64,000 nucleotides of DNA from an uncultured Nitrososphaerota archaeon (GTDB lineage Archaea; Thermoproteota; Nitrososphaeria; Nitrososphaerales; Nitrosopumilaceae), in contig CAWGPD010000003.1 of NCBI GenBank assembly GCA_963824385.1, positions 64,001 through 128,000 of the forward strand, given 5' to 3'. Position 1 is the stretch's first letter. Every line of letters starts with the position of its first letter. The position numbers were made by a program. This document shows positions 40,801 to 43,800 of this stretch, one piece after another.

Positions 40801-43800
40801 GGGACTTAAGATCATACAAATGGGTGATCCCGTCTCTTAGGGGTTCGTGGGTTCAAATCCCACCTCCTGCACCTTTTTTTATCTTTGGTGCTTTATTCCT
40901 CTAGCATTTAGAATTTCGTAAACTTCTGGAAGAGAAAATACAAATCCTACATGGACACAATTTTTCTCATCACACAATAAACAAAAGAGCTCATTATTTT
41001 GTACAGCAACTTCAGCTATTCTGTTTTTGATGTTATCTTTTATTACAACTCTATCATCGTCAACTGAAATCTTTTCAAGTTTTGGCGCGTATCTTGCAAA
41101 GGTATCGTCCTTTTGCATCAGGTCTTCCATCATGTAAGTAATATATCCTGCAAAACTGTTAACACCCTTCATTGCAAGTTCGTGTTTACTTTTCTTGTAT
41201 GTATCATGGAATTTGTTGTACACTTCTTCTGAAATTGTGATTGATTTGAAACCTGCTTTTGGCATTACTTATCTATACCGTACTTTAAAGTACTAATATT
41301 TAATACTTTTGGCTGTAAATATTGCAACCAAAGGTCAGCTTCATGTCAACTAATGTTTCATGAAAAAATGTCTTGATTATAATATGATAAAAATAATTTT
41401 AATATTTAATTAAAAAATTATTTAAAATATAATTTGATCTGTATCACGTGATATGTTTGAAGAACAAATTACTATTTTCAAACTATTAAGGATTGGGTAT
41501 CAATTCTGAGGTTTTTTTAATTACTTTTTTGATGTTATGCAATCTAGTGCGCAAGTGGCATACAATATGCACCACCACATAACTTGGACCAACCAGACCA
41601 TACCAAAGTACCGGGTCAGCAAGGACTGCCTTTCATCAGCGGTCCTTTGCTGATTTTTATTAATCCTATATACAGGAAAATCAAACAAAGTTTGTGACAC
41701 GAGAGTATAGTGCAGAAAAAATACGTCAAAAACTAATTGATGTTTTAGGTTCATCAAAGACAGGATTAACAGGAGTTGAGATCTCAGAAAAACTCAAGGT
41801 TAACCGTGTAACAATGTCAAAATATCTAAAAATTTTTGCAGGCGAGGGTCTGATAAAACAAAAAAACATGGGCAGTGTTAATCTTTGGTTCATTGAAGAG
41901 GGTGCTGATAAACTCAATTTTCCAGCGGATTTTTTCCAAGTAAAAAACAAGTATCTGGAATATGTCTTGGCAGGCTCAACTCCTGAGGCACATACCCTAA
42001 TTCGAACCTCACTTCACTCTGGAGCGGCGCCTACTAAATTGGTAAGTGAGGTAATAATTCCTGCAATAGAATCAATTGAAAATTCCTATGATAGTGGAAA
42101 GATGGGAAGGTCTGAGAAGAATTTCTATAATGAACTGATATCCACCTCGATTTCATTGATTGGCCTATCAGAAGTTGAGGTAGATCCAAAAAAGAATATT
42201 GTCATTTTGGCTACTGATTACCCAAATGCACTTTTAGCTCAAGCCGCCTCTGGCGCACTTCGTACTGGAAAATGGAAAGTATCGTTACTTGGTGACATGT
42301 CCTCTGCAATCGATGTTATGTTTGATATTGACTTGCAGAGATTTCTAAATAAAATCTGGCCCAAGCGTGATGGCATAATGATTATCGCTGTATTTGCTTC
42401 AAAAGAAGCTGAAATCAAATTCTTTTCGCATGCAGTTGAAACAGGCAAGGGAAAATATGGAAAAAATATTCATCTTGCACTTTGCACTAAGATTGGAAAG
42501 AAAACAAAGACTAGTGCAGATTTTGTGTCATCTGATGTAGAAACTTTATTGCAATGGTGTCAGACTGTGTATGAAAGTTATCAGAATCAATGATTGACTA
42601 GTTCTAAAATCTGGAACGGAAGTTTGGAGAAATCAATATCCTTTTCAACTGAGATCAAAAGTATGTTGTCATTTACTGGAAAACTCATAATTATCAGCTT
42701 GTCTCTATATGACATGGCAAATTTTACAGGACCCAATACCTTGTCAAACTCTCTTCGCATCTTTGCCCTTAAAACTAGTTCCATGTACATCATCTCGTCA
42801 TCTCTTGCATCTTCTAAAGACTCAAACCCAGGTTTCATTCCGCCTGCAATCAGTCTACCATTCCCATTAATCAAACCTGCAAATCTTATTCTCGAGTCTA
42901 ACTCGTGGATTTTTTTGCACAACTCGTCTTTATCCATGTTATACCACTTGCTTGTCTTCGAAATATATTACTAGCTTAAATCTTGACAACAAAAGTGTAA
43001 TGGGTTGTTCCTATTTATTGAAATCTGTCATATTTTGATTGAAAACTAGTGGGCCGAATGGGATTCGAACCCACGACCTTTCGATATCTGAATAATTTTA
43101 TCAGTCGAACGCTCCAGCCAAGCTGAGCTATCGGCCCAAATTTTTTTTTATCCGATTCTCATTTAAGTCTACTGGCTTTTCCACTTTATTGAACAACCCA
43201 TCGATGGGTCAAAATCTTTCTCTATCTTCTTTTCTGAAAGAACTTTCTCTATATTTTGAATCATTGTCTTCTCTGTTGGCTTGTCTTCTGGTTTTAATGC
43301 ATTGTCTAGTCTTCCATGAAAAACCAGTCTTCCATCTTTGTCAAAAAGAAATGGATCTGGAGTACAGACTGCGCCATATTTTTTTGCAATCTCTTGAGTT
43401 TCATCAACTAGATATGTAAATCCAAAACCTTTCTCTTTTGCAAATTTTTTCATGGCATCAAAACTGTCATCTGGATATTTTGTCGCATCGTTGCTGTTAA
43501 TTCCAATCATGGCAATTTTGCCCTTGAATTTATTGTAGATCTCATTTAGTGCATCTACCTTGGCCTGTACATATGGGCAGTGATTGCACATGAAAATTAT
43601 GAGCTTTGCGTTATAGTCCTTGTATTCAGAAAGTGAATGATTCTTGTCATCAATTCCTAATAAATTAAAGTCAGGTGACTTGTCTCCTGCTTTTAGAACA
43701 ATCTCTGATTTTAGAAGTACCATGTATCTTTTGTAAGATATTATTCAATAAAATCTTTGCCCGTCCAAAGGCAACAATTAAAATCTAAGCGGTTTTCAAT

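Follow-up and report, generated by a model that had tools for sequence, protein, structure and literature searches.

Which protein controls the ammonia monooxygenase (amo) genes of ammonia-oxidising archaea (AOA), and through which DNA site, is the question raised by the locus analysed here. AOA drive much of the nitrification in oceans and soils, so that the signal setting amoC matters for nitrogen loss and for inhibitor design; no transcription factor or operator named for archaeal amo genes was found in the searched literature, outside which most subscription papers fall. In the window, i.e., the whole analysed stretch of 64,000 nucleotides from a Nitrosopumilaceae genome, amoB, amoC, amoX and amoA are located at 34871-37486, and 4.2 kb past amoA, on the same strand, lies the gene of a putative regulator:

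34871..35438, minus strand: amoB, divergent from amoC
35691..36254, plus strand: amoC, the proposed target (PF04896)
36362..37486, plus strand: amoX and amoA, amoA without upstream box
40879..41265, minus strand: neighbouring 128-aa gene, divergent from the regulator gene (read as RHH-like, Pfam support absent; not AOA-restricted)
41694..42593, plus strand: regulator gene, 299 aa, GTG start (ORF; winged HTH, four-helix cap and Rossmann corrinoid-binding fold)

Taken as a whole, the reading tentatively put forward here is that of a dedicated amoC regulator: a corrinoid protein that became a transcription factor when ammonia oxidation arose, which may act by looping of curved DNA from an enhancer-like site located 12 helical turns upstream of the TATA box, would ancestrally have sensed cobalamin, and may be dosed by programmed -1 recoding in one soil genus. 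Among named records, those closest to the window belong to Nitrosotalea (81-91 % identity), so that its source is a Nitrosotalea-like archaeon. Genomes are grouped below into the amoA-bearing families f1 (Nitrosopumilaceae), f2 (Nitrosocaldaceae) and f3 (Nitrososphaeraceae), all by inferred assignment (f2 from gene order), and a fourth such family, f5.

Domain architecture and fold

The protein is composed of three domains:

41712..41894, plus strand: winged HTH (wHTH), residues 7-67
41931..42161, plus strand: four-helix cap, residues 80-156
42192..42584, plus strand: Rossmann domain, residues 167-297

The succession of wHTH, B12-cap and Rossmann fold, as described in an earlier note on this DNA, is borne out by the structural model (pLDDT 89, pTM 0.82), for which Foldseek returned CarH 5C8F as top match (E 9.9e-8), but with an rmsd of 9.4. 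Pfam matches of the single sequence stayed below threshold (B12-binding_2, E 0.0013; HTH_11, E 0.004), and a profile of 38 sequences matched the cobalamin-binding proteins 8JBS, 8J2X and 8J2W (E 2e-4 to 1e-3). Top matches by VIA were photocobilins (Z 18.6, rmsd 2.4-2.9, ~200 residues aligned), followed by 8JBS (Z 16.1), the corrinoid protein 3EZX (15.6), AppA SCHIC (15.5) and CarH (12.9). All ESM Atlas matches were below 0.9.

The N-terminal domain, modelled as three helices followed by a beta wing, resembles the wHTH of Z-alpha, MarR, ArsR and IclR proteins by VIA (Z ~11) and those of MarR, ArsR and CodY by profile. The cut-off of the ArsR/SmtB family is not reached by the window protein (NF033788, 16.3 vs 55 bits). 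Public records label the protein 'ArsR-family regulator' or 'methanogenic corrinoid protein MtbC1', so that it is not unannotated, as had been stated. Across 68 sequences from four families, R38, T40, Y44, L45, G60 and W65 are invariant and K43 is kept in 99 %; recognition helix and wing have hardly changed at all, in contrast to a drifting sensor (conservation 0.64, 0.51, 0.45). In the cap, conserved Y132, G135 and E/D141 align with the aromatic...Glu of the corrinoid protein 1Y80. The Rossmann domain carries a family-specific insert of ~9 residues ahead of conserved D211/D213; its cobalt loop varies in length and sequence within the family and is devoid of His in the window protein.

The earlier assignment to a CarH/LitR architecture is appropriate only as a likeness of layout. 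The defining features of CarH are a MerR domain, ExHxxG and Wx9EH (PMC8156234, available text). Cap and Rossmann fold are present in the window protein, whereas a MerR-type DNA-binding domain, Wx9EH and ExHxxG...S...GG are not: the HTH is MarR/ArsR-like, the Trp position of Wx9EH is occupied by Tyr, the conserved acid lies one residue early and the Glu and His positions are variable. The nearest sequences are methyltransferase corrinoid proteins.

A homodimer was modelled with a score of 0.84 (0.00 for the best control), above a mark that was attained for 20 of 30 solved pairs and for 1 of 23 single chains; contact agreement between runs was at least 77 % and pLDDT at least 82. The predicted contact places cap residues 138-158 (last cap helix) against Rossmann residues 197-221, which would readily explain why E141, G200 and D213 are conserved. 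Since this head-to-tail packing is also the solved CarH mode, the homodimer result may reflect memory of CarH.

Distribution among archaeal genomes

The full-length regulator is encoded in 224 of the 232 genomes of f1, f2, f3 and f5, and amoA in 225. Both occur together in 219, are discordant in 11 and are both missing from 2, all 13 exceptions being drafts of 30-210 contigs (tallies include the unpublished genomes G132, G231 and G283). Genomes of other families yielded no full-length copy (0/68) and two HTH-only matches of 75-77 aa. Likewise, no full-length relative outside AOA was found among 301 genomes of the phylum, in which f1 is the sole AOA family listed; matches there comprised the HTH or the corrinoid module only. 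A further 27 weak matches represent the HTH fused to V4R, PAS, receiver or other parts. The copy of one f1 genome (L155, G149:C1:1148220-1149103) is broken in two around residue 250, reflecting error or decay.

The claim that the gene tracks amoA thus holds, but such tracking is common to many genes: AOA form one clade, at whose ancestor 289 families were gained, cobalamin synthesis included (PMC7554672, available text), and co-occurrence with amoA alone is therefore weak evidence. The data support a one-component regulator, restricted to AOA and built on a corrinoid-binding fold. The family is real and probably undescribed; neither the regulator nor the amoC box or the frameshift treated below was found described in the same literature.

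Genomic neighbourhood

Proximity to amoA in three AOA families, as claimed before, was confirmed by distances. Among 46 single-contig f1 genomes, the regulator lies within 5 kb of amoA in 34, within 12 kb in 39 and beyond 100 kb in 5. In the 9 f2 genomes the distance is 6.2-6.3 kb in four and 11 kb in one, with both genes on separate contigs in four; in f5 it is 11 and 23 kb in two of four genomes. The remoteness noted for Nitrososphaeraceae was likewise recovered (more than 189 kb in 6/6 single-contig f3 genomes), with a distance of 13 kb in the draft f3 genome G220. However, the block is not peculiar to the regulator, since in f1 it also retains dam, tRNAs, the RHH-like gene and a redoxin gene; in f3, the regulator adjoins argG and tRNA-Ile. 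Linkage of regulator and amo genes thus looks ancestral but unspecific, and synteny and co-occurrence lend the pairing of the regulator with a site before amoC weak support. The 19 conserved amo neighbours in Table S15 of Hodgskiss 2023 (PMC10030591) do not name such a regulator, which could be one of two unnamed families in that table.

Several features of amo and regulator loci were recorded in passing. In the window, amoB (near 35039) and dam (near 37800) each have one extra base relative to L047 and a broken frame, probably due to assembly indels. A gene with an AbiTii domain and a PAS histidine kinase gene (38550-40559) are inserted between dam and tRNA-Thr; the insertion also occurs in L047 and is absent from the other f1 loci mapped. 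Two apparently intron-bearing tRNA genes, at ~40750-40875 (Leu by reading) and 43050-43137 (Ile), were missed by the default scan. The genomes G133, G146 and G237, which belong to the same genus as that of the window, each have a second full amoA copy; G174 has a second amoB (C22). AmoB-like stretches lie within open frames of 3504 and 437 aa (G117:C1:1133313-1133783 and 1599542-1600141). The f3 genome G244 has an extra amoC copy with box, 2.1 kb from the regulator (C1:626968-630548).

A double palindrome upstream of amoC

The intergenic region of amoB and amoC contains the following elements:

35512..35535, no strand: amoC box, two palindromic 11-mers at 13-bp period (the genome's top-scoring site, 24.5; in the training set)
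35536..35660, no strand: A/T-rich spacer of 125 nt from box to TATA (10.5-bp phased tracts, ratio 1.8 over shuffles)
35661..35668, plus strand: amoC TATA box

A TATA box at this position has already been described; the Bartossek 2012 promoter survey, in its available text, considered no conserved element identifiable for amoC (both PMC3379541). The amoC box is a 24-bp double palindrome of two 11-mers (ATG-W-T-W-A-W-CAT), with a third unit in some amoC promoters. The first palindromic matrix scored at least 18 in 35 of 38 training loci; the matrix was retrained on f1 sites alone, and weak f2 and f3 sites may be underscored. In 59 of 60 amoC promoters from four families (3 from training genomes), the best site is positioned at -200 to -165 from the start codon, and 47 score at least 9. 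Scores of at least 9 occurred in control promoters of amoA (0/61), redoxin (0/55), amoX (5/65), RHH gene (3/65) and regulator (3/157). Weak boxes precede the amoC of Nitrosocaldus-type f2 genomes (0.9, 2.6, 8.6, 13.6) and some extra amoC copies.

Where a TATA was matched (28 of 47 cases), its distance from the box is 123-128 nt in 23. A/T tracts phased at 10.5 bp exceed shuffles in 54 of 57 amoC spacers, 27 of them at p<0.05, as compared to 2/60 for amoA, 0/49 for redoxin and 9/55 for amoX.

Other identities of the element were considered. Located upstream of amoB as well, it might belong to that gene, yet it stays with amoC, repeated copies included, where amoB lies elsewhere. An RNA hairpin is rejected, since the two units are no more alike in inverted (7.4/11) than in direct orientation (7.9/11; 47 sites). 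Published copper motifs have other consensus strings (PMC7785015, Reyes 2020, as far as available). Short motifs before marine amoB in the available text of Bartossek 2012 (PMC3379541) might overlap the box. A wide regulon in G000 is not apparent: of 4 sites scoring at least 18 (0.1 in shuffles), the amo site alone has an evident link. Two of that genome's box-like sites (C1:292397, 20.5; C1:34054, 18.0) are intergenic and precede an unidentified and a CBS-like ORF (by reading). The f2 genomes G134, G166 and G202 contain 8-9 box-like matches each (0-1 in the reversed control), which hints at a larger regulon in hot-spring AOA.

The amoC operator is real and probably undescribed. The earlier view of the protein as a regulator of the amo genes is narrowed accordingly: it is a reasonable candidate, but the evidence supports amoC as target rather than amoA or the whole cluster, because none of 61 amoA promoters carries the box.

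Candidate readers of the box

The regulator is the best candidate for reading the switch before amoC, and binding of the box by it is predicted with slightly better than even confidence. Box and regulator share an identical four-family range, and the near-invariance of the recognition helix speaks for the pairing as well. In addition, the box in the regulator's own promoter, previously based on one strong case, is now found in several: it covers BRE/TATA in G174 (21.7) and G592 (14.7) at -50 and, with a weaker score, in G594 (7.9) at -50/-51, among 8 f5 genomes, and likewise in G246 (13.5) at -44. The second unit of such sites coincides with BRE/TATA; the upstream unit alone, outside BRE/TATA, still ranks at p≤0.03 in 5 of 8 f5 regulator promoters. 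Both units occur in 1 of 92 control TATA-like sites, a set to which G174's own site belongs. The f5 genomes are kin and hence not independent cases. Covariation of recognition-helix changes with loss of the box was not seen. In a screen by wHTH fold alone, covering 9 of 12 other wHTH matches in 5 genomes, none was both pan-AOA and AOA-only (0/9). The RHH neighbour was rejected as reader, being present also in non-AOA families, with close orthologs not found in f2 and most f3 genomes.

A doubtful though serious alternative is that the protein is an AOA core regulator with another conserved target, while an Lrp/AsnC oligomer (or a protein of another fold) reads the amoC box and wraps the curved spacer, amo proximity being inherited gene order. 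Two Lrp families with 55-68 % identity occur in all three AOA genomes tested, Table S15 of PMC10030591 counts an AsnC-family gene among the neighbours conserved around amo, and Lrp-type factors are known users of distal archaeal sites (PMC7408454, available text). Phased A/T tracts fit wrapping, the shared block of dam, tRNAs and redoxin fits inherited order, and 74 of 76 regulator promoters scanned, including that of the window and all of f1 and f3, lack an own box. However, both Lrp families are also encoded in the two non-AOA genomes tested, chance would have to account for the boxes covering the regulator promoters of f5 and G246, and no other shared motif was found, though no de novo search of regulator promoters was made. 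Pairing of regulator and box is regarded as plausible.

Origin, His motif and ligand

The earlier statement that the conserved His is missing does not apply throughout. Of 70 full-length members scanned, 2 have an intact ExHxxG, and the motif is kept in 3 of 8 f5 genomes (G174, G216, G594), which form one clade (support 96/90) and also retain the later Ser and GG, i.e., a complete His-on cobalamin motif; sister genomes have Asp, Tyr or Ala in place of His. The G174 protein aligns with the corrinoid protein 1Y80 over residues 90-300 (E 4.4e-10), including the cap aromatic...Glu, His loop, Ser and GG, and reaches just E 0.09-0.2 with CarH. In a tree of 35 rows, a subset of the sequences, every family falls on one side of a branch, which fits vertical descent.

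Judged from these sequences, the regulator looks like a fusion, separate from CarH, that joined an archaeal wHTH to a corrinoid protein of methyltransferase type, and the family appears to have bound cobalamin at first, with several later losses of His. Given the clade retaining His, B12 binding, called doubtful in the earlier note, was probably ancestral rather than simply doubtful.

That the protein still serves as a cobalamin or light sensor in all AOA, similar to CarH or AerR, with His-free corrinoid binding making amoC (or B12 genes) respond to light or B12 status, seems improbable. The retained fold, His in 3 of 8 f5 genomes, the CarH-like predicted dimer and the gain of cobalamin synthesis at the same ancestor (PMC7554672, available text) would agree with it. 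Against this stand the rarity of ExHxxG (just 2/70), the variable cobalt loop, the absence of Wx9EH and the finding that no top box site of G000 precedes a recognisable cobalamin operon (neighbouring ORFs assigned by reading).

A -1 frameshift in one f3 genus

In genus g33 of f3, the regulator is split by a -1 shift within the wing, at a site where it is in frame in the remaining genera examined. G-A10-T occurs at the same phase in 37 of 37 g33 genomes with a match (40 searched; L083-L112, L143-L149; unpublished G310 and G311 included). These are the sole A10 runs in 122.6 kb of loci; Lys is encoded by AAA in just 69 % of cases elsewhere, and neighbouring third positions are variable. Beyond the shift, 35 genomes have an open frame of 244-248 codons, and in 2 it runs to a contig or locus edge; dN/dS is 0.04 ahead of and 0.07 past the shift (24 pairs). 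Invariant G60 and W65 are encoded in the -1 frame, and the unshifted product would have 58-77 aa with an unconserved tail.

Assembly error or decay is ruled out by the 37/37 conservation and the low dN/dS. Programmed transcriptional slippage or -1 ribosomal frameshifting is very probable. A stimulatory hairpin at the shift was not found (median z 0.24; 0/37 below -2). Independent contigs from DNA and RNA libraries (4 runs) had no indel in the A10 run; contigs cannot reveal slippage.

Proposed mode of action

At the origin of ammonia oxidisers, an archaeal wHTH would have been fused to a methyltransferase-type corrinoid protein, giving rise to a presumably dimeric one-component transcription factor. 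The tandem 11-bp palindromes of the amoC box may be bound by probably two or three dimers, which, from ~124 bp above TATA, would act on the promoter of amoC through a DNA loop formed by the curved spacer. At amoC, the regulator would most likely be an activator: from the position and phasing of the site we infer activation by looping, repression or wrapping being less probable. In early-branching families, it may additionally have sat on its own BRE/TATA as autorepressor. The ancestral sensor would have held cobalamin through the His still found in one clade; in most lineages His was lost, and the module may now serve dimerisation and bind a different or His-free ligand. Control of archaeal nitrification becomes testable, given that a protein can be named, its putative site measures 24 bp and members with and without His exist in nature.

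Comparison with known systems

Similar to CarH/LitR of Thermus thermophilus (5C8D-F, 3WHP), the regulator has an N-terminal DNA-binding domain followed by a cap and Rossmann B12 module; CarH also forms a head-to-tail dimer, as predicted here, and its operator consists of tandem 11-bp units. Unlike CarH, the regulator is archaeal, has a canonical wHTH instead of a MerR domain, lacks Wx9EH and retains ExHxxG in one clade only. The operators differ as well: CarH binds contiguous direct repeats over the promoter, whereas the amoC box consists of palindromic units with 13-bp period far upstream. The same layout is workable without B12, as exemplified by the B12-independent CarA of Myxococcus (PMC8156234, available text).

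By sequence, the regulator is closest to methyltransferase corrinoid proteins (1Y80, 4JGI, 3EZX, MtaC 2I2X, MetH 1BMT), from which it differs by the fused DNA-binding domain, the ~9-residue insert and the loss of His in most members. Reuse of the cap and Rossmann module as sensor is also known from AerR/PpaA (7TE2), AppA SCHIC (4HEH), photocobilins (8J2W/8J2Y) and 8JBS (Z 13.6-18.6), which have other or no DNA-binding domains and share 11-14 % identity with the regulator. The ligand of SCHIC is heme rather than B12.

A fixed distal site with curved spacer is unusual for archaea, in which activators mostly bind beside BRE (PMC7408454, available text). A review of 2021 counted one cellular archaeal case of such recoding (PMC8211752, available text), to which the g33 shift, if true, would add a genus-wide example. 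As in the programmed -1 frameshift of Saccharolobus solfataricus fucA1, an A-rich slippery run lies between two overlapping frames of one gene; unlike fucA1, reported there for two strains, the g33 shift is conserved in 37/37 genomes of a genus, has no hairpin signal and affects a regulator.
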